Source: an uncultured Gammaproteobacteria bacterium
Lineage (GTDB): Bacteria; Patescibacteriota; Patescibacteriia; Magasanikbacterales; GWA2-37-8
Assembly (NCBI GenBank): GCA_964535515.1
Contig: CAZHTA010000004.1
Coordinates: 27,888-68,377, forward strand
Reading direction: 5' to 3'
Length of the DNA stretch: 40,490 bases
Part shown: one piece after another, positions 4,408 to 19,563 of the stretch
Layout of the letters: every line of letters begins with the position of its first letter
How positions within the stretch are numbered: position 1 is the first letter of the stretch
Position numbers and translations under genes: made by a program
Notes under the pieces: generated by a model
Seen by the model: the letters and a program-made list of their open reading frames with translations, nothing else
Databases searched by the model: none
Told to the model about the DNA's origin: nothing

Positions 4408-6441
4408 ATGGAAGAAAATATCTTGGAAAATCAAGCCGCACCAGCGGTGATACCAACCGACGCCGATATAAACTATTTCGGGTTGGTTAACTATCGTAAT
4501 CAAAATCGTAAGTTTGGTATTAAGACTGATGATCGCCGTCGACATATGTATGTTGTCGGTAAAACCGGTATGGGGAAAACGACGATTTTGGAGAATATGG
4601 TGTTAAATGACATCTACGCCGGACACGGGGTTGGTTTGGTTGATCCGCACGGTGATTTTGCTGAAAAGATTATTGACTATATCCCAGCTAATCGTATCAA
4701 CGATGTCGTATATTTCAATCCCGCGGATATTGATTTCCCGATTGGTTTTAATATTTTAGAAACTGTAAAGGCGGAGCACAAACATTTGGTGGCTTCTGGT
4801 TTGATGGGGGTATTTAAAAAGATCTGGCCAGATGTGTGGAGTTCACGTATGGAATATATCTTGAACAACACCCTTTTGGCATTGTTAGATTATCCTGGTA
4901 CAACTTTGCTTGGTATTAATCGTTTATTAGCCGATGCTGACTATCGTAAGCGCGTCGTGCATAATTTGAAAGATCCAGTAGTAAAAGCTTTTTGGCAAAA
5001 TGAGTTTGCGGCTTACAATGATAAATATCGCCAAGAAGCGGTAGCGCCAATTCAAAACAAAATTGGTCAGTTTTTGTCTGCTTCGGTCATCCGTAATATC
5101 GTCGCTCAAGTAAAATCACGAATTAACATTCGTGAGATTATGGATAGTAAAAAGATTTTTATCATGAACTTGTCTAAAGGAAGAATTGGTGAGGATAACT
5201 CGCGTCTTTTGGGTGGTATGCTTATCACCAAGATTCAGTTGGCAGCCATGGAACGCGTAGACACTCCAGAGAAGGATCGTAAGGATTTCTTTTTGTACGT
5301 TGATGAGTTTCAGAACTTTGCTACTGAGAGTTTTGCCAACATTTTGTCAGAAGCACGTAAATATCGCTTGGATTTGACCATGGCTCATCAGTATATGGAG
5401 CAACTAGAAGAGGAAGTCTTGGCGGCTGTTATCGGTAACGTAGGGAGTATTATCACTTTTCGGGTTGGTTCTACTGATGCAGAGATTTTGGCTAAGGAGT
5501 TTATTCCAACTTTTATTGAAGAAGACTTGATTAATTTACCAAAGTTTCATATTTACCTTAAACTAATGATCGACGGCATTGCTTCGCGACCATTTTCAGC
5601 TTTGACTTTGCCACCGATTGCTCAGACTACCCATAGTGAAGAAAAAGTAATTAAGGTTTCGCGTGAACGTTATGCTGTACCACGTGAAAATATTGAAGAC
5701 AAGATCGCGCGTTGGAGTGGCATGGTGATTATTCCAGAAGATGAAGCGAGCGAATTAGAAGTAGACGAAGAAGAGGAAATGTTTGAGAAACAGGTAAAGA
5801 AAGAAGAAAAGAAAGTGGTGGAAAAGCCAAAAGAAGAAGTGAGATCTGAGTCTAAGCCTGAACCAGCTGTTGTGGTGGAGGATACCGTAAAGCCAGAAGT
5901 TGTACAGGATTTACCAAAGACAGAACCAGCGCGGAATGTTTCAGAACCAATCGTGCAACCGCAGCCAGTTGTTAGACCGGTACAGTCTAGTTCGGCACCT
6001 CAAGTGAATCGGACATCCAATAATATTTCAGGGGGCAATCGAAATGGTGGTCAGGGTAGTAGCCAGAATTTTCAGTCTTCTGGTAAAAAGAAAAAAAAGA
6101 AACACCATAGTAGTCCAGGTGGTGGCACCGCGGTTTCTTTGGTGGATACAAGTCAAAAAGGTATTTCTCTAAATAGTTTAAGTCAAGAAAGAAACGGGGG
6201 AGGACAACAACGTGATCAGCAACGTTCGCAACAGCAGAGCGTGCAGTCTCCGGTAAAGGCACAAGAAGAAAGGAGAGAGGTTCCTCAAGTTCCAGTTGTT
6301 CAAAAACCACTTGGACCAGAGACGATCGGCTTGTTGCCAAAGGAGCAACATCAGAATCCGCCGGTTGGAGTTAAATCTCAATCACCCCATCAGCCAGTAA
6401 CGATTTTGCCTGGTCAGGTTAACAAGGTAGAAGAGAATTAA
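4408..6441 (+). CDS. P-loop NTPase of the TraD/TraG/VirD4 (type IV coupling protein-like) family with a roughly 230-aa low-complexity C-terminal tail
   Basis: Walker A is VVGKTGMGKTT and the Walker B-like motif is FFLYVDEFQNF, followed by LTMAHQYMEQL. No N-terminal TM segments. The tail is rich in E/K/P/Q/S/G and includes KKKKKKHH. Confidence 0.6.
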   Translation: MEENILENQAAPAVIPTDADINYFGLVNYRNQNRKFGIKTDDRRRHMYVVGKTGMGKTTILENMVLNDIYAGHGVGLVDPHGDFAEKIIDYIPANRINDVVYFNPADIDFPIGFNILETVKAEHKHLVASGLMGVFKKIWPDVWSSRMEYILNNTLLALLDYPGTTLLGINRLLADADYRKRVVHNLKDPVVKAFWQNEFAAYNDKYRQEAVAPIQNKIGQFLSASVIRNIVAQVKSRINIREIMDSKKIFIMNLSKGRIGEDNSRLLGGMLITKIQLAAMERVDTPEKDRKDFFLYVDEFQNFATESFANILSEARKYRLDLTMAHQYMEQLEEEVLAAVIGNVGSIITFRVGSTDAEILAKEFIPTFIEEDLINLPKFHIYLKLMIDGIASRPFSALTLPPIAQTTHSEEKVIKVSRERYAVPRENIEDKIARWSGMVIIPEDEASELEVDEEEEMFEKQVKKEEKKVVEKPKEEVRSESKPEPAVVVEDTVKPEVVQDLPKTEPARNVSEPIVQPQPVVRPVQSSSAPQVNRTSNNISGGNRNGGQGSSQNFQSSGKKKKKKHHSSPGGGTAVSLVDTSQKGISLNSLSQERNGGGQQRDQQRSQQQSVQSPVKAQEERREVPQVPVVQKPLGPETIGLLPKEQHQNPPVGVKSQSPHQPVTILPGQVNKVEEN

Positions 6442-6451
6442 TATTTAAATT

Positions 6452-6481
6452 ACCCGCCCACAATTTAGGGGGCGGGTTTTT
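6452..6481 (+). terminator. Intrinsic terminator
   Basis: ACCCGCCC-loop-GGGCGGGT followed by TTTT. Confidence 0.8.
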
Positions 6482-6509
6482 GACTTTTTTGGCTAAAATT
6501 TGGTAAGAT
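6480..6509 (+). promoter_or_regulatory. Sigma70-like promoter for the swivel-domain operon (TTGACT, 18 nt, TGgTAAGAT)
   Basis: The -35 TTGACT is at 6480-6485 and the extended -10 TAAGAT at 6504-6509. The ATG at 6519 is only 9 nt downstream. Confidence 0.5.
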
Positions 6510-6518
6510 ATACCCTAT

Positions 6519-7973
6519 ATGAAACAAGACTATATCCTCAAACAGCGCAAAAAGAACATGTATATTTTCCCTAATGTTTTTGTGATTGGGCGGGTTTTTA
6601 CGGGCAGTTTGAACAAAATATTGAATGGTAAGAATTTTGGAGAAACAATGTGTATTTACAAGGACGATATGATGTATTGGTATGCTTCGGATAGTATGGT
6701 AAAAGCGGCGGCGCAAGAATTTTTTAAGAAATTAAAAAAGAATTCAAATTTTGTTTCTTCGTCTATTCGTATTTTTTCTAAACGTAGTAATTTTTTTCTG
6801 TCTTGGGTAAAAAAAGTTAGTAAGAGGGATTTATCAAAAATGACCAACAAGGAGCTGGATGTTTTTTGGGATAAGTATTTAGAGCTCTATGAGTCTAGCT
6901 ATATCTATAGTGAAGCATTGGTAATTTGTTTTGAAGAATACCTTTCTGGTCTTTTGTCTTCGTATTTAAAGAAATTAGTAAAAAGTGATACTGAAGCATC
7001 TCGGGTTCAAAATGTTCTTGCTTCGCCTTTGGAAAAATCATTTGTGAAAAGAGAAGAAGATGATTTGTTGAATTTGGCGTTAAAGATTAAAAACGGCAAG
7101 GTGAAGGATGTAGAATTGGCGTTAGAAAAACACGTGGAGAAGTATCAATGGGTGCCGTTTGATTATGGTATGTATATTTGGGATAAAAAATATTTTAAAA
7201 AGATTTTGCAAGGGATGTTAAAAAATGCAGATTTAGAGAATCGGATTGTGGCTAGTAAGAAATATTTGAAGTATTTGTCTTTGGAACAGTTGCGTTTAGA
7301 AAAGGAATTAAAGATTGACAAGCAATACAAAAAATATTTTATGGCGATGCGCCAGACGGGGTATTTGTTAGATTACAAAAAGGAAATTTTTACCCAGATA
7401 CATTTTTATGCAGAGAAGGTATTGGCGGAGACAGGTAAACGTTTGGGTGTAAAAAGAGATCTGGTGCAATATTATTTGCCAGGAGAAATCAAGACTGCCT
7501 TAAAGGAAGGTAAAGTGGTTGGCAAGAAAATATTAGAAGCGAGACAAAAACATTGTTATGTTCGTTGGTTTGATAATAGTATCGAAGCAGTGATAGACAA
7601 GCCGGATAGTTTGTTGGCTAAATTTTTATTAAAAGAAGATCCGACTTCAGCTAAATTTGAGGGTATTATTGCTTCGGCGGGAAAATGTATTGGAAAGGTA
7701 AAGATTTTACATAGTGCGTTAGAAGTAGACAAGGTGAAATTGGGTGATATTTTAGTTGCACCAATGACTAGTCCAGATTATGTTCCGGCGATGCGTTTGG
7801 CTGGGGCAATTATTACTGATGAGGGCGGGGTGATGTGTCACGCGGCGATTGTGTCGCGTGAATTAGGTATCCCGTGTGTGGTTGGTACGAAAAATGCCAC
7901 AAAGTTTTTACATGACGGTGACGAAGTGGAAGTGGATGCTAATCATAATTCGGTGAGGATAATTCGCAGATAG
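6519..7973 (+). CDS. Swivel-domain paralog 1: uncharacterised N-terminal domain + C-terminal PEP-utilizer (phosphohistidine) mobile domain
   Basis: The C-terminus GDILVAPMTSPDYVPAMRLAGAIITDEGGVMCHAAIVSRELGIPCVVGT aligns with the E. coli PpsA His-domain (GGRTCHAAIIARELGIP). The N-terminal part carries KHVEKYQWVPFDYG. Confidence 0.85.
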   Translation: MKQDYILKQRKKNMYIFPNVFVIGRVFTGSLNKILNGKNFGETMCIYKDDMMYWYASDSMVKAAAQEFFKKLKKNSNFVSSSIRIFSKRSNFFLSWVKKVSKRDLSKMTNKELDVFWDKYLELYESSYIYSEALVICFEEYLSGLLSSYLKKLVKSDTEASRVQNVLASPLEKSFVKREEDDLLNLALKIKNGKVKDVELALEKHVEKYQWVPFDYGMYIWDKKYFKKILQGMLKNADLENRIVASKKYLKYLSLEQLRLEKELKIDKQYKKYFMAMRQTGYLLDYKKEIFTQIHFYAEKVLAETGKRLGVKRDLVQYYLPGEIKTALKEGKVVGKKILEARQKHCYVRWFDNSIEAVIDKPDSLLAKFLLKEDPTSAKFEGIIASAGKCIGKVKILHSALEVDKVKLGDILVAPMTSPDYVPAMRLAGAIITDEGGVMCHAAIVSRELGIPCVVGTKNATKFLHDGDEVEVDANHNSVRIIRR

Positions 7974-7974
7974 C

Positions 7975-9411
7975 ATGTTAAATAGCAGCGATTCAAAACA
8001 TATTCGTGAAACTAATTGGTATCGCCAAGGTGGGGCGATTAATTTGTTTTATTGTTTTAGTCCGTTTCAATCTATTCGCGAAACCATTGGTTATGATGGT
8101 TGTATTATGTATCAAGAGGATGCTGTTAATACTGCTTTTTTTGAACGAGACAGAGAGGATAAGTTAGCACTTAAATTTATCCGAGCAAGCGGGGAAGACA
8201 AATATTTGGTGGACAGATGGATAAGCGTTTGGCGTATACGCATATTAAAGTTAAATAAGTTTTTAGATAAAAGTTTTTCTAAACCATTGGAAACGTGGTC
8301 TGATGCGGAGTTGGTTAATTTTTTCCATCGTTATGATCATTTGGCTTTAAGTCATTGGAAGAAGGGTGTTTTGTGTGAATGGACTGACCCTAATGGCTGG
8401 AATATAGTAAAGACGGAGGCTTTAAAATATTGCCCTAATCTTAGTGATGAAGATATTAATCTGTTAACATCACCAGAAAAGTTAACTGTAGTGCAGAAAG
8501 AATTAGTTGATCGGTTGGTTTTAATGAAAAAACAAAAGCAGGGTTTAAGTATTGAGCGCGAGCTTAAGAAACATGTTAGTAAATATTTTTGGATTCGCAA
8601 TAATTGGGCGTTTGTTTATGATTTAAAAGAAAAAGATTTTCAAAAGGTTATTAACAAAGAAATGTTAAAGTTGGAGAAAGTTGAAAGACAAGTGAAAGAA
8701 ATTAATGAATATATACGTGAGATTAAGAAAAAGAAAAAGATTTTAATCAAGAAAAAATCAGTACCACGTAAAGTACAAAATGTTTTTTACTTTTTTACTC
8801 AATTAACCGATTGGCGCGATGAGAGGAAAAAATTTGCTGCTTGTTTGCCAAATCATTATTTATATAAAATATTGAAAGTATTGGCGAAGAGAAATAATAT
8901 TTCTGAGGAGTTGGTTGGTTTATTAATATGGTTTGAAATTAGTGGTTGGAAATTATCTGTAAAAACAATAGATAATTTAAAAAGACGAGGGCAGGGCTGG
9001 ATCTATTATTGTCGTAAAAATAAACAATGCCAACAAGTTTATGGTAGTGAGGCAAAAAAGATTTTTAATGATTTGGTTAAGGCGTTAGATAAAGGTGAAT
9101 TGCGAGGGTTAATAGCAAACAAGGGTGTTGTGATTGGTAAAGCGAAGATTGTGGAAGTACAAGCTGATTTTAGTAAAGTAAAAAAAGGGGATATTATTGT
9201 TGCTAACATGACGCGCCCAGATTATGTACCGATTATGAAATTGGCAGGTGGAATAATTACCAATGAGGGAGGGATTACTTGTCACGCGGCAATTGTTAGT
9301 CGTGAGTTAAATATTCCTTGTATAATTGGGACACAGGTGGCTACGGATGTTTTAAAAGACGGTGATGTTATAGAAGTTGATGCGGATAATGGTGTAATTA
9401 GAAAAAAATAA
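7975..9411 (+). CDS. Swivel-domain paralog 2
   Basis: GDIIVANMTRPDYVPIMKLAGGIITNEGGITCHAAIVSRELNIPCIIGT. N-terminal motif KHVSKYFWIRNNWA. 1-nt gap to the upstream gene. Confidence 0.85.
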   Translation: MLNSSDSKHIRETNWYRQGGAINLFYCFSPFQSIRETIGYDGCIMYQEDAVNTAFFERDREDKLALKFIRASGEDKYLVDRWISVWRIRILKLNKFLDKSFSKPLETWSDAELVNFFHRYDHLALSHWKKGVLCEWTDPNGWNIVKTEALKYCPNLSDEDINLLTSPEKLTVVQKELVDRLVLMKKQKQGLSIERELKKHVSKYFWIRNNWAFVYDLKEKDFQKVINKEMLKLEKVERQVKEINEYIREIKKKKKILIKKKSVPRKVQNVFYFFTQLTDWRDERKKFAACLPNHYLYKILKVLAKRNNISEELVGLLIWFEISGWKLSVKTIDNLKRRGQGWIYYCRKNKQCQQVYGSEAKKIFNDLVKALDKGELRGLIANKGVVIGKAKIVEVQADFSKVKKGDIIVANMTRPDYVPIMKLAGGIITNEGGITCHAAIVSRELNIPCIIGTQVATDVLKDGDVIEVDADNGVIRKK

Positions 9412-9414
9412 TTT

Positions 9415-10890
9415 ATGCAAGATATTAATAGGTTGACTGAGAAAGATTGGTATTTTCAAGGGTTCAATGGTGTCCCAGCTCTTTTGTATGGTCCCGCTTG
9501 GTCTATGGCGCGTGATATGCCAAAATTTTTAGGTTTTGGCTATTCTGTTTGTGTTGAATATTTCACTAAGGATGTTTGTTATTATCTATATTCTTGGGAT
9601 GATTTATATAAAATTCATGATGAATTATTAAAACGTGTTAAACGCGACAAAAATTATTTGCGTTATTTATCAAAATCAGATGAATGTTTATGTAAAGAAG
9701 TGATTAAAGAATATAAAATTTTAGGTGGGAAAGATTGGTGCAGTGCTTCCATAAAAGAATTATTTTCGGGTTGGCGTAAAGCCAATGATTTATATGCGCA
9801 TCTTTTAGGGGTTTCGCATATTGTAGAAGGGTTTAGTTTAACCACAGAAGATCGAATTAGAGCTTTGATTAATGAAGTTTTTCCTAATGATTCCGGAGCT
9901 TTGTCGTTGCTCACTACTCCCAAGACGCATTCTTTTATGTCTATTGAGCACTATGAGTTATGTTTAATAGCTCATGGTGTTAAACGTATTAAATTGGGTA
10001 AGTGTACTGTTGAAAATATTTTGGTTAATAAGGTGATAAATAAAAAAATATGTCTTCATCAGGAGAAATATTATTGGAAATTAAATGGTTATACGTCGGC
10101 TAAGTTTCTAGACGACAAGTATTTTGCCAAAGAAATATGTGGTTTGTTAAACAAGAAAGTTAATTTTGAAAAATTTATTCATGATTTTGAAAATTTGTCC
10201 AAAAGATTAGATGGAAAAAAGAAACTTCTTAAAAAAGTGAAAAATCAAGAATTACTTGATTTATTAAAAATTTCTGATGCGTTGTTTGTGATCCACGATC
10301 GTCGTAAAGAGCATATGACGCAATCAATTACTTATTTGGAATTAATTTTAAGTGAGATTGCTAAGCGATTTAAAATACCTTTATCTGATTTGCACTATAT
10401 TCGTCCGTCAGAGTTAGAAAAGTTACCTAAGATTTGGTCGGAGTTAAAAAAGAGGAAAGAACATAGCATATACATTTTATATCCAGAAGGAGAGATGCCA
10501 GTATTAACTGGTTTAAAAGCAAAAAAATATTTTGAAAAAATTGAAAAGAATAAAAAATTAGATAAGATTTCGGAGATTAAAGGGAATGGTGCGTCGCCAG
10601 GAAAAGTAAGAGGCGTAGTTAAGGTGTGCCGCGGTGAAAAAGAATTAGGTAAAATGAAAGAAGGAGATATTCTCGTGGCGTGTATGACACAGCCTGAATT
10701 TTTACCGGCTTTGAGAAAAGCTAAGGCCGTCATTACTGATGAGGGTGGTTTGACTTGTCATGCTGCGATAGTGGCAAGGGAGTTAGGAATTCCTTGTGTG
10801 ATTGGAACAAAAGTAGCTACTAAAGTTTTAAAAGATGGTGATATGGTAGAAGTTGATGCGGATAATGGTATAATTAGGAGAATAAAATAG
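9415..10890 (+). CDS. Swivel-domain paralog 3
   Basis: GDILVACMTQPEFLPALRKAKAVITDEGGLTCHAAIVARELGIPCVIGT. N-terminal motif HQEKYYWKLNGYT. Confidence 0.85.
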   Translation: MQDINRLTEKDWYFQGFNGVPALLYGPAWSMARDMPKFLGFGYSVCVEYFTKDVCYYLYSWDDLYKIHDELLKRVKRDKNYLRYLSKSDECLCKEVIKEYKILGGKDWCSASIKELFSGWRKANDLYAHLLGVSHIVEGFSLTTEDRIRALINEVFPNDSGALSLLTTPKTHSFMSIEHYELCLIAHGVKRIKLGKCTVENILVNKVINKKICLHQEKYYWKLNGYTSAKFLDDKYFAKEICGLLNKKVNFEKFIHDFENLSKRLDGKKKLLKKVKNQELLDLLKISDALFVIHDRRKEHMTQSITYLELILSEIAKRFKIPLSDLHYIRPSELEKLPKIWSELKKRKEHSIYILYPEGEMPVLTGLKAKKYFEKIEKNKKLDKISEIKGNGASPGKVRGVVKVCRGEKELGKMKEGDILVACMTQPEFLPALRKAKAVITDEGGLTCHAAIVARELGIPCVIGTKVATKVLKDGDMVEVDADNGIIRRIK

Positions 10891-10892
10891 TT

Positions 10893-10926
10893 CTTTAAAA
10901 CACAAGCACCCGACCGAAGTCGAGTG
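10893..10926 (-). terminator. Intrinsic terminator of the island gene
   Basis: The minus strand reads CACTCGAC-TTCG-GTCGGGTG followed by CTTGTGTTTT. It starts 35 nt after the stop codon. Confidence 0.6.
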
Positions 10927-10960
10927 CGTTGTGCACGTTGTTGGGGCCTGCTCCAATGAG

Positions 10961-11452
10961 CTAGGCCAGTCGCGTCGCGGTACCGTCGCCGAGGTGGAGC
11001 TCGTACACGGCGCTGCTCGCAGCCTCGAGCTTGAGGCTCTCGAGCACCGGACGTCCGGCCACGAGGACGACGTCCGGGCTGCCCTCGGCGAGGATCAGCA
11101 TGCCGTACGTTTCCCGCAGGTGCATGAGCGTGGCTTCGCGGGACGGCATTCGGAACCGGTCCAACGTCGTCTGCGCGTTGCAGGCGAGCGCGATGTTCCA
11201 CCCTCCGTTGCCGTTGGGGACGCCCGAGCTGGGGTCACCCAGCATGGGATCGTACCACTCGATCTCCTGGAAGATGTCCAGCGCCTCGGCCGTGTCGATG
11301 TGACGCCGGGCGGTCCCGCAGAAGACTCGACGCTTGTCGGGGAGGGGCAGGTGCGGTACGAGCCGTTCGATCTCGCTTCTTCCTTTGCTCGTGAGACCGG
11401 GGTCCGCACCGGGACCCTTCGAACCGTGGGTGATCAATAGGACTCGCGCCAT
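10961..11452 (-). CDS. SixA/PGAM-like histidine-phosphatase-fold protein (163 aa) with degenerate catalytic motifs; high GC3
   Basis: MARVLLITHGSKGPGADPGLTSKGRSEIERL...RRVFCGTARRHIDTAEAL follows the RHG...LTxxGRxQ...SPxxRAxxTA pattern. It has THG in place of RHG and VLVAGRPV in place of the distal SH motif. AGGAGAA lies 6 nt upstream of the ATG at 11452. The 198-aa track ORF is an upstream extension. Confidence 0.6.
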   Translation of the reverse strand: MARVLLITHGSKGPGADPGLTSKGRSEIERLVPHLPLPDKRRVFCGTARRHIDTAEALDIFQEIEWYDPMLGDPSSGVPNGNGGWNIALACNAQTTLDRFRMPSREATLMHLRETYGMLILAEGSPDVVLVAGRPVLESLKLEAASSAVYELHLGDGTATRLA

Positions 11453-11473
11453 CTCTCGTTCTCCTATGGTTGT

Positions 11474-11488
11474 GCGACACGCTGTCGC
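11474..11488. promoter_or_regulatory. Inverted repeat GCGACA-CGC-TGTCGC in the 5' region of the island gene (operator or hairpin candidate)
   Basis: Perfect 6-bp arms with a 3-nt spacer, about 20 nt upstream of the SD on the minus strand. Confidence 0.3.
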
Positions 11489-11605
11489 TTGGTCCCAAAT
11501 AAACGTGCAGTTTGTTTCAGATAGTGCTCGGATTTGGTTAAATCCAGGCAAAATCATGGTACCAAACGTTTCAGTATAGTATATTTTCGCTGTTTTGTCA
11601 ATATT

Positions 11606-13087
11606 ATGTACAAATCACCTCAATTTAAATCAAATAAACTAGAACTTACGGTTAGTCGTCCGTATGTTCCTTTGTGTGCTAACTATTTTTTCCAAAGCTA
11701 CAGTAATCCAGAATATTTTAAGAAGTTTTATAAAATTAACTTTTTTACTCGTTTATTAGCAATTAATGCGGATTTTTATTATGGCCTAGAAGCAAAAGAT
11801 TTTGGCTATGTTCTTTTTGGACAAGCGGCAAAGTATGGTAGTCATAGTAAAATTAAAAAGAAAAATCTTAAGGGTATTTTGCACATTTTTGATCGGACCT
11901 ATAAATTTGGTGATTCGTTATTGGAATTTACTTTGCAAGTTAAGAAAACAGATTTTTCTGAATATTCAAAGAAGCAATTATTAGAGGTGTTTGGAAAATT
12001 TTCGAAAGATTATGTTGTTTTTTGTACTGCTTTATTGGGTATGAATATGCAGTATGTTGTCGAAGATGGTTTGCGTGAGTTTCTACGAAGTGATAAAAAC
12101 GCAGAAGAGGAGCTTGCGATTTTGACTTTTCCTGATAAACAAAATGTTCTTGTTCAAGAACTAATGGACTTATTGCGTTTACGAATTAAATTAGAAAAAG
12201 TTGGTGTTAAGAATTTGGAAAAATGTAAGACCAAGGAGCTTGGCTTACTAAAGAAGCATGTTGATAAGTACGGTTGGATCAATGCTCGTGGTGCCATTAA
12301 TGAAGGATGGACGGTAAAAGAGGTTTTTGATCGGGCGATGGCAGAAAAGAATTGTGCTAAACGTTTGGTTGAGATAGTTAAGAATCAAAAAGAGCATCAA
12401 AAACAAGTTCGAGATATATTTAAAACAAAAAAACCTAATGCGGAAATTAGGGATTTAATAAAAATCGCCAAAGAGCTGGTATATTTTCGCACCTACCGTA
12501 CAGATTATCTTAATTGGATGTTTTTTAATATTCGTCCTTTATTAAATGCGTTGGCAGGTAAGATGGGTATTAGTTTTGAGGATATTATATATTATCTACC
12601 AAAAGAAATCATGACTAAGAAAAAAGTGTCTGAAAAAGAGGTTGTTCGTCGCAAGGAAGGTTACGCGATATTGTTAGCTAAACCTTATGAGGTATTATTC
12701 TCCTCTGATCCTAAGAAAATATTGGAATGGAAAAAGAAACATACTGAGGTATTAGGTGGCAATGTTACGGAAGTTAAGGGTATGTCTGCATACAAAGGTA
12801 TTGTTCGTGGTAAGGCTGTGTTGGTATTGAAAAAGGCTGATATGGTAAAGGTTAAGTCGGGGGATGTTTTAATCACTTTTATGACTACGCCAGATATGGT
12901 ATCGGTTATGCAGAAAGCAATAGCGTTTGTTACTGATGAGGGTGGTATTACATGCCATGCGGCGATTGTAGCACGGGAGATGAAGAGACCGTGTGTAACA
13001 GGGACCAAAATTGCTACTAAGGTTTTTAAAGATGGCGATGAAGTAGAAGTGGATGCGAATACTGGTGTAGTGAAAATTATTAAATAA
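11606..13087 (+). CDS. Swivel-domain paralog 4 (ATG 11606 preferred over the TTG 11534 of the track)
   Basis: GDVLITFMTTPDMVSVMQKAIAFVTDEGGITCHAAIVAREMKRPCVTGT. N-terminal motif KHVDKYGWINARGA. The 5' extension of the track ORF runs into island/intergenic sequence. Confidence 0.85.
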   Translation: MYKSPQFKSNKLELTVSRPYVPLCANYFFQSYSNPEYFKKFYKINFFTRLLAINADFYYGLEAKDFGYVLFGQAAKYGSHSKIKKKNLKGILHIFDRTYKFGDSLLEFTLQVKKTDFSEYSKKQLLEVFGKFSKDYVVFCTALLGMNMQYVVEDGLREFLRSDKNAEEELAILTFPDKQNVLVQELMDLLRLRIKLEKVGVKNLEKCKTKELGLLKKHVDKYGWINARGAINEGWTVKEVFDRAMAEKNCAKRLVEIVKNQKEHQKQVRDIFKTKKPNAEIRDLIKIAKELVYFRTYRTDYLNWMFFNIRPLLNALAGKMGISFEDIIYYLPKEIMTKKKVSEKEVVRRKEGYAILLAKPYEVLFSSDPKKILEWKKKHTEVLGGNVTEVKGMSAYKGIVRGKAVLVLKKADMVKVKSGDVLITFMTTPDMVSVMQKAIAFVTDEGGITCHAAIVAREMKRPCVTGTKIATKVFKDGDEVEVDANTGVVKIIK

Positions 13088-13117
13088 TTTGTTTATATAT
13101 TTTTAACTTATAAAAAT

Positions 13118-14200
13118 ATGGAAAGAGGACCAAGTTTAAGGCCAGAGGATATGCTAGTTGGCAATGATGGGGTGGATCAGAAAGCGCGAGGTGTAATTGA
13201 ATCACGTGATAGCGCCGTAGCTCATAATATTGAGCGTGGGGAAGGCTTATCATCTTCGCGTGTTGTTTTGGAGTTTATGCGTCATGGTAAAAAAGAAAAA
13301 GCGCCAGGCAAAGATGATCGTGATATACGCATTGTTCCGGAAGCGCGTGTGGCAGCAACGGAAAAAGGTAAAAAATTAGGAGCGCAAGCTGAGGTGTCGG
13401 TTGTTTATGCTAGTCCGCGTAACCGTACTCAGGAATCTGCTGGCCGAGTTGCTTTGGGTAATCAATCAGAAATTACTGCGGATATGAGCTTAGAGGATAT
13501 TATGGTTAAAACAATGGAGCATAATGCTATTTTAATGCCTGATCAGTTAGAACGTTTGCGCGAGCTGTTGTCTCATCCAATGGAAGAATTAAATGCTGAA
13601 GAAAAGAAGGAGCTAAAACTTTTGTCGAGTAAAGGTAAAAAAATCATGGTTGATGAACGTTTGGATTTTACTGATGAAACAGAGGAGGGTCTAAAAGCTT
13701 TTATGGCTGGTCGTTATTTAGATCATGCTGTAAAGGATAGTGATCAGTTGGCAATTGCAAAGCATGATACTAAATTATCTACCTATACTCGTTCGGCTGG
13801 TAAGATCGCGGAGATTGTTTCTAAATATATTCAGGTGGGTAAAAATTTTAACAAAAGAGTAAGTGTTGATCCAGAGAAATATAAAAAATTCGGTAATCAA
13901 TTAGAAAGATATTTTGGTTCACACCAAGGTGTTGTAGAATGTTTTTTGTTGAAAGCAATCGAGAAAATAAAAGGTGTAAAAGAGCGTGATGAGATTTTGG
14001 CTTTGATGCCAGCAGGTTTTAAAGAGTTACAAGGTGTAAGGATTGGCATTGAGAACAATGGCAAAGGAGAACAGGTGATTGTTTTAGATGCCGAAGTTGA
14101 AGGAAGAAAGATTAATTTAGAATTAACCCCAGAGATTTTAATGGGTATGGTTAGTGATAGAGATGTGCTGGATGAACAATGTAAGAGTAGTGTGGAGTAA
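13118..14200 (+). CDS. Histidine phosphatase superfamily (PGAM-like) protein with a large internal insertion
   Basis: LEFMRHGKK (RHG), VVYASPRNRTQESA and the distal YFGSHQGVVE (SH motif). About 150 extra residues lie between the two half-sites. Native low GC. Confidence 0.7.
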   Translation: MERGPSLRPEDMLVGNDGVDQKARGVIESRDSAVAHNIERGEGLSSSRVVLEFMRHGKKEKAPGKDDRDIRIVPEARVAATEKGKKLGAQAEVSVVYASPRNRTQESAGRVALGNQSEITADMSLEDIMVKTMEHNAILMPDQLERLRELLSHPMEELNAEEKKELKLLSSKGKKIMVDERLDFTDETEEGLKAFMAGRYLDHAVKDSDQLAIAKHDTKLSTYTRSAGKIAEIVSKYIQVGKNFNKRVSVDPEKYKKFGNQLERYFGSHQGVVECFLLKAIEKIKGVKERDEILALMPAGFKELQGVRIGIENNGKGEQVIVLDAEVEGRKINLELTPEILMGMVSDRDVLDEQCKSSVE

Positions 14201-14210
14201 TATTGTTGTT

Positions 14211-15281
14211 ATGTCTATCGTTCCTGATAAATTTTTAAAAGGAGAGTGTTGGCTGAAAGATTGGGCGGGTCAGTGGGATCTTTTTATTTGTTTTTATTCA
14301 GGAGAAGATTATACCACCTTACTTAAAAAGTGGTTGGGTATTAATTTTGATAAATGTCTTTTTATTTATCACGATGGGTTTGTGGAGTGTTATTTAAATA
14401 AAAGATGTTTAGATATTTTGGGTAGAGAGATTAACGCGAGGGTTAAAGAGGATGTTTTGTGGATTGATAGGAATTGTAAAGATCTTAAAAAGAATACACA
14501 AATTTTCCTAAAATATTTTGCTGAGCATAAAAACGATTTGGTTGCGGAAGAGACATTGAAGAAGTTTTTGCAGTTGGTTAGCAATTGTTTTGCTGCGTAT
14601 ATTTCTAATAAATTAGCATTTGATTATTTGTCAGCAGATATATTAAAGAAAAAATGGAATGTGATGGAATCGGCACGTGTATACTCAGAATCGGTTTATA
14701 CGGCGTGTATAGAGTTTGTTCACAATTGGGGTAAACAAATGGCGAAAAAAGTTAAGATACCAAAGGATCTCTTTCTTTGTTGTTCGTTAAATGAAATTGA
14801 AACTTATTATCGATCGGGTAGATTACCAAGTGTTAGCGAGTTAAAGCGACGGTATTCGTTTAATGTGATACTTTCACAGAATGGTCAGAGTTTTTTATTG
14901 ACTGGCTCAGAGGCTAAGGCTGTTGAGAAAAAGATTATTAGTTCATTTGGCGACAGTAAAACCATTAAAGGCACCTGTGCCTATCCGGGGAAAGTAACGG
15001 GGCGGGTTAGAATTGTTTTTGATCCTAAAAAGATAAAAGATTTTAAAGATGGGGATATCTTGGTAACACCGATGACGCGACCGGAGTATCTTTCTCTAGT
15101 TAAAAAATCCGCTGGTTTTATTACTGATGCTGGCGGTATGCTTTCTCACGCCGCTATTACAGCGCGCGAGTTAAAGAAGCCGTGCGTGGTAGGTACCCAA
15201 GTGGCTACGCGTTTGTTAAAAAATGGAGATGAGGTGGAAGTGGATGCCAACAAAGGGATAGTTAATGTGATTAAAAGATAA
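14211..15281 (+). CDS. Swivel-domain paralog 5 (short, 356 aa; ATG 14211 preferred)
   Basis: GDILVTPMTRPEYLSLVKKSAGFITDAGGMLSHAAITARELKKPCVVGT. Confidence 0.85.
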   Translation: MSIVPDKFLKGECWLKDWAGQWDLFICFYSGEDYTTLLKKWLGINFDKCLFIYHDGFVECYLNKRCLDILGREINARVKEDVLWIDRNCKDLKKNTQIFLKYFAEHKNDLVAEETLKKFLQLVSNCFAAYISNKLAFDYLSADILKKKWNVMESARVYSESVYTACIEFVHNWGKQMAKKVKIPKDLFLCCSLNEIETYYRSGRLPSVSELKRRYSFNVILSQNGQSFLLTGSEAKAVEKKIISSFGDSKTIKGTCAYPGKVTGRVRIVFDPKKIKDFKDGDILVTPMTRPEYLSLVKKSAGFITDAGGMLSHAAITARELKKPCVVGTQVATRLLKNGDEVEVDANKGIVNVIKR

Positions 15282-15288
15282 TGATTTT

Positions 15289-16839
15289 ATGAAGGTGCTA
15301 AAAACTTTTCCTTTGGCTTTGACCAAAAAAACTGCTAGTCAGTTTAATAAGGCGTTTCATGCCAAGTTATTTACTTTGTTTGCTTCTTCGATGAGTGAAC
15401 TAATGCAGTTGGCTAAGGATTTTCCTGTGCATTATAAACATTGTTTGTGTTTTATTAAAGATGATTTAGGCCAGTGGTTTTTGGGCGCAGATAGCATCGA
15501 AAGAGTTAGGCGGTATATCATAAAAAAAGCTGATGAGGATTTTTCTCAGATAAATAAATATTATTTACGTTGGCAGAAAGACTGGGGTAAGTTTTTAATA
15601 TTAAACAGAAAATTAATTAGTTCAGATTTTAGTTCTTTGACTGACAAGCGGTTGTATAAAGTTTTTGATGAGTTTTATGATCTATATTTAAAAGTAGGTG
15701 GTGTGGCATATATTAGTGATGCCTTTATGTCCTCTGGGGAAAAAGATTGGCTGCAAGAGGTTATAAACCAAGAATTAAAACGCATTTATAAAGATATTGA
15801 AAAAGTAAAAAGGGTGGCGGCGGATTTGATTTCGCCAGTTCATCTTTCTTTTGTTTTGGAAGAAGAACTTGAATTATTAAAACTAGCTCCGGCGTTTATT
15901 AATCTTACTGGTAAATTGGTGGGTTTTAATAAGTTGTCCGCTAAACAACTAGCGCAGCTGGAACGTCATGCTGACAAATATTATTGGATGAATAATAACT
16001 ACTATAACGTAGAATTTTACGATGCATTTTCAGTATATACACATCTGGTCAATCTTTTAGATGGTTTGCAACAAGAAAAACGTAGCCTTAGTGATTTTTT
16101 GGCGGAGAGACAGCGCGAATTAAAGGAAAATAAAACGAGGCGTGAGGGGTTGATTAGTGATATTAAGCTACCAAAAAAGATTAAGAGCTTAATTCGGGTA
16201 GCTAATTTGTTTAGCAAGTGGAAAGACGTTCGGAAAAGTGGTGTGTATCGTGGCATGGCAATTTTTGATAAATTTTTGGGCGAGATAGCAATGCGTACTG
16301 GTTATACAAAAAAGGAAATTACTTTTTTAGTTTTTCCGGAGTTCAAGGATTTATTGTTAAATAGAAAAGATTTTCGGTTGGTTATAAAAGATCGTCAAAA
16401 GCAAATATTTTTTGTGGTGCGTCCGCACGACTATCTTTTGGTTAGCGGTCAAAAGGCGGATAAATATTTTGCTTGTTTGTCCGAAGGACTCAATGCTGAG
16501 ATGAAAGAATTCAAAGGAGCAGTGGCCTCCAAAGGAATCGCGCGCGGGGTGGTGCGGATGATAAGGAAAACAGAAGAGATGAAAGACTTTAAAAAAGGTG
16601 AAATTTTAGTTACCAACAATACTACACCAGAGTTTGTTCCAATCATGAAAAAGGCCGCAGCGATCATTACTGAACAAGGTGGTATAACCTCACATGCTGC
16701 TGTAGTTTCGCGTGAATTGCGTAAGCCGTGTATTATTGGTGTTAAAGGTATTACAACCATTTTAAAAACAGGGGTAGAGGTTGAAGTAGATGCTAATCAT
16801 GGTATAATTAAGATTATTAATAAAAGTTTAAAGAAATAA
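15289..16839 (+). CDS. Swivel-domain paralog 6
   Basis: GEILVTNNTTPEFVPIMKKAAAIITEQGGITSHAAVVSRELRKPCIIGV. N-terminal motif RHADKYYWMNNNYY. Confidence 0.85.
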   Translation: MKVLKTFPLALTKKTASQFNKAFHAKLFTLFASSMSELMQLAKDFPVHYKHCLCFIKDDLGQWFLGADSIERVRRYIIKKADEDFSQINKYYLRWQKDWGKFLILNRKLISSDFSSLTDKRLYKVFDEFYDLYLKVGGVAYISDAFMSSGEKDWLQEVINQELKRIYKDIEKVKRVAADLISPVHLSFVLEEELELLKLAPAFINLTGKLVGFNKLSAKQLAQLERHADKYYWMNNNYYNVEFYDAFSVYTHLVNLLDGLQQEKRSLSDFLAERQRELKENKTRREGLISDIKLPKKIKSLIRVANLFSKWKDVRKSGVYRGMAIFDKFLGEIAMRTGYTKKEITFLVFPEFKDLLLNRKDFRLVIKDRQKQIFFVVRPHDYLLVSGQKADKYFACLSEGLNAEMKEFKGAVASKGIARGVVRMIRKTEEMKDFKKGEILVTNNTTPEFVPIMKKAAAIITEQGGITSHAAVVSRELRKPCIIGVKGITTILKTGVEVEVDANHGIIKIINKSLKK

Positions 16840-16840
16840 T

Positions 16841-17827
16841 ATGCCAAAAGTTTCTCATATTAAGTTTTTTAAGAATATCTCTAAAAGTGATGTTGATATT
16901 GCTGGTGGTAAGGGTGCGTCTTTAGGTGAGATGACACAAGCCAAGATTCCAGTACCAAATGGTTTTGTGGTTTTAGCCGCAGCCTTTGATCGTTTTTTAG
17001 AAGAGACACAATTAAAAGAGGAAATTGTGGCACGGCTAAAGGAAGTTAACCCAGAAGATACTAATTCGGTTGATCGTATTAGTGCGGTTATTCGTGATGC
17101 GATTCATGATCGGTCAATGCCTAAAGATTTGCAGAAAGAAATTTTAGGAGCATTTACTAAGTTAGATGCTAAATTTGTGGCTGTACGTTCATCGGCTACA
17201 GCAGAGGACTCATCTGTTGCTAGCTGGGCAGGGGAGCTGGAGAGTTATTTAAATACGAGTAAAAAAGATTTGATTGAACGGGTGCGTCGTTGTTGGTCGT
17301 CGTTGTTTACTCCGCGTGCTATTTTTTATCGTCATGAAAAAGGGTTAATTGACCATTATGTCTCAGTAGCGGTAGTAGTACAAAAAATGGTGCAGTCAGA
17401 AATTTCTGGCATTGCTTTTACTGTTCATCCAGTAACGGAAGATTATGACCAGATGATTATTGAAGCGGGGTATGGTTTGGGTGAAGCGATTGTCTCTGGA
17501 CAAATTACACCTGATAGCTATGTGATTAGCAAGGGTAGTATGGAGATTATGGATACTTATGTTAGTTCACAAGCTCGTCAGTTAATTCGTAAGAAATCTG
17601 CTAAGAGCAAAGGGGATGAAGAAAACACTTCAAATGAGTGGGTAAATTTAGGTAAAAAAGGTGAAAAACAAAAGGTCGACAACAAAACGGTCTTGGCCCT
17701 GGCCAAAGTATTTAAACGGATTGAGGACCATTACAAGTTTCCGTGTGATATCGAATGGGCTATGGAAAAGAAAAAAATATATATTACCCAAAGTCGTCCG
17801 ATTACTACTTTAAAGAAGAAAAAGTAG
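16841..17827 (+). CDS. Stand-alone PpsA/PPDK N-terminal ATP-grasp (nucleotide-binding) domain protein
   Basis: Collinear with E. coli PpsA residues about 1-345: GGKGASLGEM, IPVPNGFVV, VAVRSSATAEDS..SWAGE, AVVVQKMV, GIAFTVHP, EAGYGLGEAIVSG and DIEWAMEKKKIYITQSRPIT. It ends there, with no His or TIM-barrel domain. 1-nt gap to paralog 6. Confidence 0.9.
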   Translation: MPKVSHIKFFKNISKSDVDIAGGKGASLGEMTQAKIPVPNGFVVLAAAFDRFLEETQLKEEIVARLKEVNPEDTNSVDRISAVIRDAIHDRSMPKDLQKEILGAFTKLDAKFVAVRSSATAEDSSVASWAGELESYLNTSKKDLIERVRRCWSSLFTPRAIFYRHEKGLIDHYVSVAVVVQKMVQSEISGIAFTVHPVTEDYDQMIIEAGYGLGEAIVSGQITPDSYVISKGSMEIMDTYVSSQARQLIRKKSAKSKGDEENTSNEWVNLGKKGEKQKVDNKTVLALAKVFKRIEDHYKFPCDIEWAMEKKKIYITQSRPITTLKKKK

Positions 17828-17852
17828 TTATGGGTATTTAACTTATTGAACT

Positions 17853-18974
17853 ATGAAAGGAAATAGCAGGTTAGTGATAATTAGTTTAGCGTTATTAGTG
17901 CTTGGTGTTTTAAGTCGTAGTGCTTACTTAATTATCTTTGGTATTATTGGTTTGTATATTACTTACAAAAAGAATCAGGCCAGTTATCCAACAGGAACGA
18001 ATTTCCTGGTGGTCATATTTTCTGACCTATTGGATGAATTAAAAAAGAAATATCCACAATTTAATTTGGATAAGTTTTTACATAATATAAAAGTCAACAA
18101 AGTCGATGATAATCAAAATGTTAATTTTAATCGTATGCCTTTGAATAATGCCGGTAGTGCCAAAAAAGTTTTGGGGATAATTTTTGGTGTTATTATCTTA
18201 GTAATTTTAGTTGCTAAGTTTGTTATTGTTATCCCTGCTGGATATGTTGGTGTTTACAACCTGTTTGGTAAAGTAAGTGATCGACCGTTGTATTCAGGTT
18301 TGAATTTTGTTAACCCACTTGGTTCGGTAGAAAAGATGGATGTCAGAATCCAGGATTACACCATGAGTATCGCTCCTAACGAAGGAGCAAAAACAGGGGA
18401 CGATTCGATTTATGCCCTCAGTAAAGAAGGTTTAAGTGTTTCGTTGGACATTACCGTTCTTTATCGTTTGTCTCAAGAAAAAGCACCAGTATTGTTTAAA
18501 GAGATTGGACAGAACTATAGTGAAATTGTTGTTCGTCCAGAAATTCGTAGTGCGATTCGTGAGATAGTGGCCACTTATGATGTAAAAGATATTTATTCAG
18601 AAAAACGAGCGGAAGCTAATCAAAAACTTGTTGATTTACTAAAGAGTAAAGTTGAGCCACGCGGGATAATTATTGAGGAAGTGTTGTTACGTAATGTTCA
18701 GTTGCCAAAAAATTTAGCGGACAGTATTGAGTTAAAATTACAGTCCGAACAAGAAGCTCAGCGTTATGATTTCTTGCTTGAGCAAGAAACAAAAGAAGCG
18801 GAGAGGAAAAGGATCGAAGCTGCTGGCCAGCGAGATTCACAGAAGATTATTAGCGAAGGTTTAACTCCGGCATACTTGCAGTATCTGTATATTACTAGCT
18901 TGAAAGACCGTCAGGGCACGATATATATCCCAACTAATCCAAGCAATGGTTTGCCATCTTTTAAAGGTCTTTAG
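17853..18974 (+). CDS. SPFH/band-7 (prohibitin/HflC-like) membrane protein
   Basis: TM segments followed by IPAGYVGVYNLFGKV..., LSVSLDITVLYR, VRPEIRSAIREIV and a coiled-coil tail. Confidence 0.8.
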   Translation: MKGNSRLVIISLALLVLGVLSRSAYLIIFGIIGLYITYKKNQASYPTGTNFLVVIFSDLLDELKKKYPQFNLDKFLHNIKVNKVDDNQNVNFNRMPLNNAGSAKKVLGIIFGVIILVILVAKFVIVIPAGYVGVYNLFGKVSDRPLYSGLNFVNPLGSVEKMDVRIQDYTMSIAPNEGAKTGDDSIYALSKEGLSVSLDITVLYRLSQEKAPVLFKEIGQNYSEIVVRPEIRSAIREIVATYDVKDIYSEKRAEANQKLVDLLKSKVEPRGIIIEEVLLRNVQLPKNLADSIELKLQSEQEAQRYDFLLEQETKEAERKRIEAAGQRDSQKIISEGLTPAYLQYLYITSLKDRQGTIYIPTNPSNGLPSFKGL

Positions 18975-18980
18975 AACGCA

Positions 18981-19009
18981 TTGACAGAAACACGTTTTTG
19001 TGCTATAAT
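18981..19009 (+). promoter_or_regulatory. Consensus sigma70 promoter TTGACA-17 nt-TATAAT
   Basis: ttgacagaaacacgtttttgtgctataat. The -35 is at 18981-18986 and the -10 at 19004-19009. Confidence 0.7.
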
Positions 19010-19149
19010 GTCAACAATTAACTTGGGCAATGTAGTAAGGGCCTAAAAGCCAACAGGACGTTCCCAGTATTTCCAGGCTGGATTAAACCAGTCGGAGGTC
19101 GAATTTATCTATCTCAAACAACATTTTGGGAACAAAACAATCAAAATAT

Positions 19150-19479: not shown

Positions 19480-19491
19480 AATGGAAATCAA

Positions 19492-19523: not shown

Positions 19524-19527
19524 AATC

Positions 19528-19555: not shown

Positions 19556-19563
19556 ACTTCAAT

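Follow-up and report, generated by a model that had tools for sequence, protein, structure and literature searches.

Two-component small-molecule dikinases have been characterized as HpeHI in Rhodococcus, CreHI in Corynebacterium, and PpsAB, the phenylphosphate synthase of Thauera and Aromatoleum. These relatives are split into two components, both of which are required (PMC12167813): a stand-alone ATP-grasp protein and a protein that carries a substrate-binding domain like that of rifampin phosphotransferase (RPH) ahead of a swivel His domain at its C-terminus. The window analyzed here, a 40,490-nucleotide (nt) stretch of DNA, shares this split and likewise encodes the components in adjacent genes. 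It carries eight intact, forward-strand paralogs (P1 to P8), each ending in a phospho-His domain (Pfam PF00391, E values of 1e-22 to 4e-28). We consider it likely that the eight are the substrate-binding and swivel-His components of a split RPH-superfamily small-molecule dikinase, and that they share the ATP-grasp subunit encoded at 16841-17827. The preliminary description had placed all eight copies within 6519-16839; this holds for six of them, while P7 and P8 lie outside those coordinates.

The N-terminal regions had been described as one diverged but homologous family, and this stands. All eight match a profile HMM built from 92 relatives from outside the window (P1, 1e-107; P3, 4e-84; P6, 6e-78; P2, 5e-58; P4, 4e-54; P7, 5e-43; P5, 4e-21; and P8, in two pieces, 8e-9), and the best of 1600 shuffled control sequences reached an E value of 1e-3. 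The homology is thus far beyond chance. The N-domain also shares homology with the RPH substrate-binding domain, as would be expected of a specificity domain.

Six paralogs are long forms. P1 (6519-7973, 484 amino acids [aa]) consists of an RPH-like helical substrate-binding domain (residues 1 to 378) and the swivel phospho-His domain, with the motif KHVEKYQW at residues 204 to 211 (nt 7128-7151), the block D285-Y-K-K288, and the catalytic His441 (nt 7839-7841). The corresponding motif and block are KHVSKYFW and R-D-E-R-K in P2 (7975-9411, 478 aa), LHQEKYYW and H-D-R-R-K in P3 (9415-10890, 491 aa), and RHADKYYW and K-D-V-R-K in P6 (15289-16839, 516 aa). P4 (11606-13087, 493 aa from the ATG at 11606 in a frame that opens with TTG at 11534) keeps the motif as KHVDKYGW, and its catalytic block is changed to R-T-Y-R-T. 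In P7 (33469-34830, 453 aa) the block is kept as R-D-D-K-K and the motif is degenerate (KFVKEFGW), with Phe at the His position. The motif strings quoted in the preliminary description for P1 to P4 and P6 were correct, and there the motif takes the form (K/R/L)HxxKYxW; its extension to the whole set fails at P7 and at P5 and P8, which do not contain it. Across 100 family members, the motif His is conserved in 91%, the Trp in 93%, and a Tyr five residues further on in 89%; in the family the D, R/K, and K of the block are conserved at 90%, 98%, and 85%.

P5 (14211-15281, 356 aa, in a frame that opens with GTG at 14154) has no counterpart to long-form columns from about 170 to 295, which include both the KHxxKYxW and D-x-R-K blocks, and instead shows a short-form A-R-x-x-x-E motif (SARVYSES). 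P8 (35467-36561, 364 aa, PF00391 E value of 1e-22) can be aligned to the same short subfamily and carries A-R-x-x-x-x-E as AKARGNVAE. P5 and P8 represent a distinct, conserved short form without the central motif-bearing segment. With the start of P5 corrected, the reported length range of 356 to 516 aa is accurate. The N-terminal Cys/aromatic strings are likewise present as quoted, but other family members do not consistently keep the Cys; modeling places a beta-hairpin here, hydrophobic and with D/N-G/D at its turn.

The swivel domain is the more constrained part of these proteins, as had been proposed. All eight copies keep the catalytic His, in GG-x-x-x-H-A-A. Mean identity between paralogs is 51% in the C-domain versus 24% in the N-domain, and pN is 0.33 versus 0.54. 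Synonymous sites are saturated in both domains (pS of 0.69 in the C-domain and 0.70 in the N-domain), so dN/dS is not computable and the duplications must be old, in line with the earlier proposal; synonymous differences in both domains gave no sign of gene conversion among the window paralogs. The DNA-level conservation reported near the C-terminal end amounts only to the codons for EVEVDA, and the 17-mer given as identical in P1 and P5 reads GAGGTGGAAGTGGATGC in P5, one mismatch from the quoted string. That the copies are not decaying duplicates holds up, because every copy is intact and the long as well as the short forms are members of large, conserved families. The family comprises more than 6000 clusters at 50% identity and is concentrated in CPR.

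Three of the four paralogs compared have clear counterparts in another Magasanikbacteria genome (L001). N-domain identity to these is 45 to 56% for P1, P3, and P6, versus about 24% between paralogs. The P3 counterpart lies at 19444-20931 (53% identical in the N-domain) and that of P6 at 17909-19441; orthology of P2 is doubtful because its N-domain identity is only 28%. We infer that the paralogs differ in specificity.

The shared subunit would be encoded directly after P6, by a forward-strand gene (16841-17827, 328 aa) whose product is a complete PPDK_N domain, matching Pfam PF01326 with an E value of 1e-95 over positions 2 to 315. This gene had been overlooked in the first reading. Its nearest solved structures are PEP synthase (8a8e, 1e-71), the RPH ATP-grasp domain (5hv6, 3e-50), and a stand-alone protein (9goj, 7e-49); for both it and the partner His domains, PEP synthase is nearer than RPH or HpeI. 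Relatives of these proteins are labeled "phosphoenolpyruvate synthase/pyruvate phosphate dikinase" or "PEP-utilizing enzyme" in databases, and the top NCBIfam and PDB sequence matches for the His domain and for the ATP-grasp domain are to PEP synthase. It is nevertheless extremely improbable that the genes are, as those names would have it, fragments or degenerating copies of one for PEP synthase or pyruvate phosphate dikinase. None of the nine proteins contains the PEP/pyruvate-binding domain (Pfam PEP-utilizers_C), the partners score 76 to 134 bits against equivalog cutoffs of 598 to 740 (340 against 598 for the ATP-grasp protein), all frames are uninterrupted and have conserved counterparts in other genomes, and the N-domain is RPH-like. 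This reading is already contradicted.

Gene order points to the shared-subunit dikinase. Spacing is 1 to 3 nt at the P1/P2, P2/P3, and P6/ATP-grasp junctions: P2 starts 1 nt past the P1 stop, and P6 stops 1 nt ahead of the ATP-grasp start. Each of the best 80 related CPR loci contains exactly one ATP-grasp gene, at least 58% identical across these loci, which span many CPR lineages. Among the 40 loci that span 18 kb or more, 37 have at least one partner gene nearby and 12 have five or more, and as many as nine occur within 10 kb; 193 of 194 partners match the ATP-grasp orientation. Natural fusions also occur. One locus (L055) encodes ATP-grasp, a short N-domain, and the His domain within a single frame, and an uninterrupted 1836-codon frame in two assemblies has the architecture ATP-grasp-(N-His)x3. 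The arrangement of one ATP-grasp gene with many partners thus recurs across tiny-genome CPR bacteria. The ATP-grasp protein is presumed to be the common charging subunit for the catalytic His of its partners, and all eight are apparently charged by it. Because HpeH and HpeI did not associate stably in vitro (PMC12167813), sequence alone does not reveal which proteins pair physically.

Close relatives differ in whether they have the array. In the nearest one (L004), the ATP-grasp gene is retained and no partner lies within 10 kb of it, so the subunit may have other partners or roles; window positions 6445-16838 correspond to about 1 kb there, and copy number and gene order vary from genome to genome. 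Such variability would suit a battery of RPH-like enzymes that inactivates antibiotics or toxic small molecules of hosts and neighbors, as would the facts that RPH is the sole solved structural match of the N-domain and that rph-like matches in CPR have been catalogued as resistance-like genes (PMC8651080). We nonetheless consider this role unlikely: scores against RPH NCBIfam models are only 42 to 72 bits (cutoffs, 999 and 1700), the conservation of the ATP-grasp protein over the best 80 loci looks more core than accessory, the number of family clusters seems too large for that role alone, and a distant RPH clade member does not confer rifampin resistance (PMC4844700).

Other genes are interleaved with the paralogs. 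Within the array, a 360-aa divergent histidine-phosphatase superfamily protein (13118-14200, forward strand) has R-H-G in EFMRHGKKE and matches His_Phos_1 with an E value of 8e-6 (26 bits; cutoff, 21.7). Its L001 counterpart is at 12930-13859, and its family is present in 7 of 77 related loci. An antisense gene (10961-11557, reverse strand, 198 aa) resembles this superfamily weakly (His_Phos_1 E value of 0.005, under the cutoff), with T-H-G instead of R-H-G; it sits where G+C content is raised (0.42 versus about 0.35), its relatives are similarly placed in four other loci, and a Pfam search with a representative of those relatives gave zero matches. Between P7 and P8 lies a HAD-family hydrolase gene (34844-35461, forward strand, 205 aa; HAD_2 E value of 6e-21). 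At least 28 of the 77 arrays contain or adjoin divergent His_Phos_1 genes, which belong to the superfamily that includes SixA-type phospho-histidine phosphatases. Together with a match of the His domain to PTS Enzyme I, this recurrence could suggest a protein phosphorelay, in which various proteins receive phosphate from the swivel His, much as HPr does from Enzyme I, and the phosphatases act on phospho-histidine. This is quite improbable, as the N-domain is folded like the substrate-binding domain of RPH and not like the HPr-binding subdomain of Enzyme I, the block that in RPH moves phosphate to a small-molecule hydroxyl is kept, and no HPr-like or receiver genes were found in the window.

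The recurrent phosphatase-like and HAD genes would also fit a scavenging role for the same enzymes. Here, host nutrients or metabolites (sugars, nucleosides, phenolics) would be trapped or activated, partly replacing kinases that CPR lack, and released later by the phosphatases. Scavenging was proposed for HpeHI by its authors from sub-micromolar Km values (PMC12167813), glucokinase and phosphofructokinase are reported missing in one CPR genome paper (PMC7143001), and both the strong conservation of the ATP-grasp protein across CPR and the large, CPR-concentrated family agree with it. The case is circumstantial, however; the window has no linked pathway genes for using such products, and two phosphoanhydride bonds per phosphorylation are costly given poor energy metabolism. 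We regard this role as a tentative possibility.

For the split dikinase itself, homology to RPH, PpsAB, and HpeHI suggests a course of reaction. The ATP-grasp subunit would bind ATP and phosphorylate the conserved swivel-domain His of a partner, and that swivel domain would then swing back to its own helical N-domain. There, the D-x-R/K-K block of long forms, or A-R-x-x-x-E of short forms, would help transfer the phosphate to a hydroxyl of the bound small molecule (overall, ATP + X-OH + H2O -> AMP + Pi + X-O-P), and the acceptor pocket would be distinct in each paralog. The interleaved histidine-phosphatase-type and HAD genes may reverse or regulate this phosphorylation. As P5 and P8 have no D-x-R-K block and P4 has T-Y-R-T instead, their chemistry may differ.

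Compared with RPH, the long-form block aligns with R666-E667-x-x-K670 of RPH-Lm (PDB 5FBS/5FBT/5FBU and 5HV1), with D285 opposite Glu667 and K288 opposite Lys670 in the profile alignment. The second transfer in RPH depends on Arg666 and Glu667, as determined by mutagenesis, and Lys670 is part of that conserved network as well (PMC4844700). The RPH counterpart of KHxxKYxW in the alignment is the block DYLQKYGMR. Identity to RPH is only 16 to 19%, and RPH joins its ATP-grasp, RIF-binding, and His domains in a single chain of 867 residues, whereas the window system is split. The closest sequence matches are to PEP synthase (pyruvate, water dikinase; PDB 8A8E and 2OLS), at 1e-71 for ATP-grasp and 2e-52 for the swivel profile, and the swivel domains have GGxT(S/C)HAAI(V/I)(A/S)RE in common. 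Unlike PEP synthase, the window proteins are without the PEP/pyruvate-binding TIM-barrel domain, and their His domain is C-terminal, behind an unrelated helical domain.

HpeHI, CreHI, and PpsAB are 1:1 pairs in aromatic-catabolism operons, whereas the window combines one ATP-grasp subunit with eight partners and contains no carboxylase or other phenol-pathway genes. The window N-domains are shorter (about 250 to 410 aa), and in the NCBIfam search no model matched the partners outside the last part of the N-domain and the His domain. Long forms mostly retain a Thr at the second position ahead of the His, where HpeH, CreH, and PpsA have Met; the window His and ATP-grasp domains are PEP-synthase-like, and the host lineage is CPR/Patescibacteria. 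A dikinase mechanism through a phospho-His intermediate would be expected here, as in HpeHI, CreHI, and PpsAB (PMC12167813).

Each of the eight paralogous partners is encoded on the plus strand by an intact open reading frame (ORF): P1 at 6519-7973, P2 at 7975-9411, P3 at 9415-10890, P4 at 11606-13087 (an earlier TTG opens the frame), P5 at 14211-15281 (the frame opens at an earlier GTG that overlaps the upstream gene), P6 at 15289-16839, P7 at 33469-34830, and P8 at 35467-36561. All eight end in a PEP-utilising mobile (swivel) domain (Pfam PF00391, E about 1e-23 to 4e-28). The catalytic His within this domain is kept in 8/8 copies, as the preliminary description had claimed, and the surrounding motif T-[DNE]-x-G-G-x-x-x-H-A-A is invariant in the paralog alignment. 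Among named proteins, P1 is most closely related to one from Candidatus Magasanikbacteria. The window as a whole has a G+C content of ~0.37, nearly all of its genes lie on the plus strand, and its GC skew is strongly positive, at 0.15-0.40 where plus-strand genes lie and moving toward 0.07 at two minus-strand genes (38112-40255) and at 24-27 kb. Strong strand compositional asymmetry of this kind has been reported for another CPR genome (PMC7143001). Immediately upstream of P7 is a cell-envelope cluster, in which tandem ORFs of similar sequence (28778-29893 and 29899-30897, the first of the FemAB family, Pfam E 7e-34) are followed by a flippase-like membrane protein and a GT4 glycosyltransferase.

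The N-terminal 250-410 residues of all eight paralogs matched no family in a Pfam scan. To compare them, we used an HMM built from 92 family members with the window's own sequences excluded, and 1600 shuffles served as the control (best shuffle, 1e-3). This model recovered every N-domain, with E values of 1e-107 for P1, 4e-84 for P3, 6e-78 for P6, 5e-58 for P2, 4e-54 for P4, 5e-43 for P7, 4e-21 for P5, and 8e-9 for P8; the last two are two-piece matches that skip the centre of the model. The N-domains are thus a single homologous family, as first proposed. When the N-regions alone were compared by BLASTP, P1, P2, P3, P4, and P6 were mutually linked and collinear (E mostly 1e-5 to 4e-14), and P5, P7, and P8 joined the other paralogs weakly. 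The KHxxKYxW motif had been read correctly in P1, P2, P3, P4, and P6, but it is degenerate in P7, with Phe for His, and absent from P5 and P8. The Cys/aromatic patch noted near the N terminus is real, but it amounts to a hydrophobic beta-hairpin with a D/N-G/D turn, and its Cys is not conserved family-wide.

P5 and P8 belong to a distinct short class. Profile-profile alignment joins the long and short families with a probability of 100% and shows that the short forms are without long-form columns ~170-295, the segment bearing both KHxxKYxW and a D-x-R-K block. Across 80 related loci from other genomes, the length of the N-part is bimodal, with ~60 short (200-300 aa) and ~114 long (330-470 aa) examples. 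A short-form profile matched >1000 database clusters, the top 120 of which are nearly all ~350 aa, and the short family has its own invariant residues, A-R-x-x-x-E among them. The short class is a conserved form of its own and no set of wrecks. The N-domain family is large and has no Pfam model: an N-domain-only profile matched 6202 cluster representatives (50% identity) at E <=1e-3 and 1173 at E <=1e-30, mostly proteins of ~480-520 aa. Among 100 family members, conserved positions (P1 numbering) include R/K287 (98% conserved), R342 (95%), E323 (94%), W211 (93%), H205 (91%), D285 (90%), Y216 (89%), and K288 (85%).

The two domains have diverged to different degrees. Mean paralog identity is 24% in the N-domain versus 51% in the C-domain, with pN of 0.54 versus 0.33. 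Synonymous differences between paralogs are saturated in both (pS 0.70 for the N-domain, 0.69 for the C-domain), as they are between the window and L001, a locus from another Magasanikbacteria genome (pS 0.64-0.83), so neither comparison yields a usable dN/dS ratio by domain. The N-domains of P1, P3, and P6 are 45-56% identical to their L001 counterparts, well above the paralog level, and that of P2 is 28% identical to its presumed counterpart. Along the N-domain, linear conservation is lowest at residues 1-101 and 345-358 and highest at 169-222, around the motif, and at 284-309, the catalytic block. The preliminary description had also seen conservation at the DNA level near the end of the C-domain, in a shared 17-mer. 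This string is exact in P1 and has one difference in P4, but P5 carries one mismatch that had gone unmentioned. The claim of DNA-level conservation did not survive, as the 17-mer corresponds to the codons of EVEVDA within a domain whose synonymous sites are saturated. Recent gene conversion as the origin of the 17-mer was rejected because pS is as saturated in the C-domain as in the N-domain.

The fold of the N-domain points to rifampin phosphotransferase (RPH). AlphaFold, given a 100-sequence alignment, modelled P1 with very high confidence (pLDDT 94.8, pTM 0.92), and fold comparison places a helical substrate-binding domain, with the fold of the RIF-binding domain, N-terminal to the swivel domain. 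By sequence, a 100-sequence full-length profile aligned with RPH from profile position 107 to the end, and an N-domain-only profile found no match among PDB sequences; the RPH link is seen only through the full-length profile and the fold comparison. In the profile alignment, KHxxKYxW lines up with the RPH 'DYLQKYGMR' block, D285 with RPH Glu667, and K288 with RPH Lys670 (P1 numbering). Mutagenesis has shown that Arg666 and Glu667 of RPH are required for the second phosphotransfer; these two residues and Lys670 are retained even by remote branches of the RPH superfamily (PMC4844700). The corresponding D-x-R/K-K block, with Asp where RPH has Glu, is present in P1, P2, P3, P6, and P7 and altered to T-Y-R-T in P4; A-R-x-x-x-E replaces it in the short forms P5 and P8.

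The gene for the ATP-grasp protein (16841-17827, 328 aa) begins 1 nt past the P6 stop (16839). It encodes a complete stand-alone PPDK_N domain (PF01326, E 1e-95, profile positions 2-315 of 328), whose closest solved structures are PEP synthases (1e-71), the RPH ATP-grasp 5hv6 (3e-50), and 9goj (7e-49), a 387-residue stand-alone ATP-grasp structure. With this protein, the window contains three features of the RPH-type small-molecule dikinase superfamily (RPH, PpsAB, CreHI, HpeHI): an ATP-grasp module, a C-terminal swivel domain whose catalytic His fits T/S-x-x-G-G-x-x-x-H, and a helical substrate-binding domain. NCBIfam models of the PRK08296 type match only the partners' His domain and a short stretch just before it. 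Two other identities were rejected. PEP synthase (TIGR01418 / NF005057) scores 76-134 bits against the partners and 340 against the ATP-grasp protein, with a cut-off of 598, and the PEP/pyruvate-binding domain PEP-utilizers_C was found by Pfam scan in none of the nine proteins (partners plus ATP-grasp); split PEP synthase is effectively excluded, and so are decaying duplicates. Rifampin phosphotransferase proper is opposed by the split architecture and by partner scores of 42-72 bits where 999 is required and of 33-57 where 1700 is (NF041857 / NF000283), and the ATP-grasp protein alone reaches 273 bits against the RPH equivalog (cut-off, 999).

To place the system more broadly, we used the ATP-grasp protein to scan a single genome for each species and analysed the best 80 of 206 relatives, which are 58-90% identical to it. 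Most of these 80 derive from MAGs of CPR bacteria (Magasanikbacteria, Falkowbacteria, Uhrbacteria, Komeilibacteria, Parcubacteria, Saccharibacteria, Gracilibacteria, and others), and a few loci bear other taxon labels, some of them doubtful. An HMM search found exactly one ATP-grasp copy in each of the 80 loci, and 64/80 carry one or more partners no farther than 10 kb from it. In the 40 loci of >=18 kb, partners number one or more in 37, three or more in 21, and five or more in 12, with a maximum of nine. Partner genes lie on the same strand as the ATP-grasp gene in 193 of 194 cases. One Uhrbacteria ORF (L055) fuses the ATP-grasp domain to a short N-part and a His domain, and concatenations such as A-(N-H)3 are numerous in databases; one of these, P0027, is an 1836-codon uninterrupted ORF in the standard code that occurs in two independent assemblies. 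Natural fusions support a functional link between the ATP-grasp protein and its partners.

Several features of these records deserve mention. P0012, P0021, P0027, P0091, and L084 3001-8511 are giant polyproteins of up to 2309 aa that join an ATP-grasp domain to two, three, or four N-His modules. The system also occurs in a few records assigned to Nanoarchaeia, Bathyarchaeia, Nanoarchaeota, or Micrarchaeota, which implies either mislabelled bins or a system that DPANN archaea have too. Many TPA MAG records with this locus (L004, L006, L007, L012, and others) are titled 'uncultured Gammaproteobacteria bacterium', titles that look wrong or like placeholders because L004 is syntenic with the window.

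L004 also holds the closest ATP-grasp relative, 90% identical at the protein level. In place of the window's 10.4-kb P1-P6 array with its two phosphatase-like genes (6445-16838), L004 has ~1 kb of unrelated sequence (9001-9998) between a TrwB-like ATPase gene and the ATP-grasp gene, and the flanks are syntenic on both sides at 71-93% nucleotide identity. The P1-P6 array is thus an indel between close relatives, and the array is fluid. L004 is also missing the Band_7 gene (window 17853-18974), and L001 has a syntenic array in a different gene order. In L001, a Fic-domain gene, of a kind absent from the window, lies between partner genes (16838-17878). Immediately before the array in the window (4408-6441) is a TrwB/VirD4-like coupling-protein ATPase (TrwB_AAD_bind, DUF87) with a long low-complexity Q/P/S/K-rich C-terminal tail, and such an ATPase also precedes the array in L001 and 7 other loci. 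A gene 1.3 kb downstream of the ATP-grasp gene (19126-19479) encodes a small protein whose treble-clef zinc fingers are repeated (zf_Tbcl_2, E 7e-29), and a similar protein occurs near the ATP-grasp gene in 5 other loci, perhaps as mere local synteny.

Phosphatase-like genes accompany the partners. Inside the array is a divergent His_Phos_1 gene (13118-14200, Pfam E 8e-6), a weaker His_Phos_1 match lies antisense at 10961-11557 (minus strand, Pfam E 0.005), and a HAD hydrolase gene separates P7 from P8. The antisense gene is the array's sole minus-strand gene and encodes 198 aa with T-H-G replacing R-H-G; it sits in a patch (10931-11557) with a G+C content of 0.42 versus ~0.35, and 4 other loci have relatives of its product in similar positions (e.g., L005 1865-2392, minus strand). 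Among the 77 other loci analysed, several unrelated-looking small families with an R-H-G-type motif recur in or beside arrays; for four of them, together present in 28/77 loci, the sole Pfam match is His_Phos_1 (E 3e-5 to 2e-3). Such proteins could dephosphorylate either the products or the phospho-His.

The domain identity, folds, conserved blocks, linkage, and fusions observed here are best read as those of a split, RPH-like water dikinase whose single ATP-grasp subunit acts for many substrate modules. Judging by homology, the chemistry would convert ATP to AMP and Pi through a phospho-His intermediate; the single ATP-grasp protein would be shared by all partners, and each paralog would have a different small-molecule acceptor. 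A more ambitious scheme, which we put forward only tentatively, is a hub-and-spoke system in CPR and possibly some DPANN archaea. In it, one highly conserved ATP-grasp subunit would charge a large, fast-diversifying set of long and short swivel-His adaptors, each phosphorylating its own acceptor, and divergent histidine phosphatases dedicated to the task would undo the phosphorylation. Such a modular kinase toolkit, if it exists, would have a central part in the trapping, activation, or neutralisation of host molecules by these reduced-genome symbionts.

As for its role, the system could serve detoxification or resistance, and one survey placed rph-like BLAST hits from CPR among resistance-like genes (PMC8651080). 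Alternatively, it could trap or activate host-derived metabolites; a protein phosphorelay is less likely. Anti-phage defence was rejected, since PADLOC assigned no family to 7 of the 8 proteins scanned and P8 gave a chance-level match (E 0.002). Our literature search found no paper on this dikinase system in CPR. Genomes of CPR/Patescibacteria are ~1 Mb and have very few recognisable kinases or pathways. In the window, ~12 kb is devoted to eight partners of one dikinase, and the RPH-like, two-component, one-to-many reading provides a specific hypothesis about a sizeable part of CPR 'dark matter'. Database names such as 'PEP synthase' or 'PEP-utilizing enzyme' can lead to gluconeogenesis being wrongly inferred in metabolic reconstructions. 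Were the substrates host metabolites or antibiotics, the system would bear directly on the epibiotic life of CPR on hosts.

The closest characterised parallels are HpeHI, CreHI, and PpsAB, two-component small-molecule dikinases. Their genomic context is phenolic catabolism (a carboxylase and the like), whereas the window has no such genes and its neighbours are phosphatase-like genes, the TrwB-like ATPase, the Band_7 protein, an HD protein, and housekeeping genes. HpeH, CreH, and PpsA share ~45% mutual identity; in all three systems both components are needed, and mutation of the His abolishes activity (PMC12167813). Like the window, they pair an ATP-grasp protein on its own with a separate, adjacent protein that joins an RPH-like substrate domain to the swivel His domain. 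A split RPH-like dikinase in CPR would extend this recently defined two-component subfamily well past aromatic catabolism.
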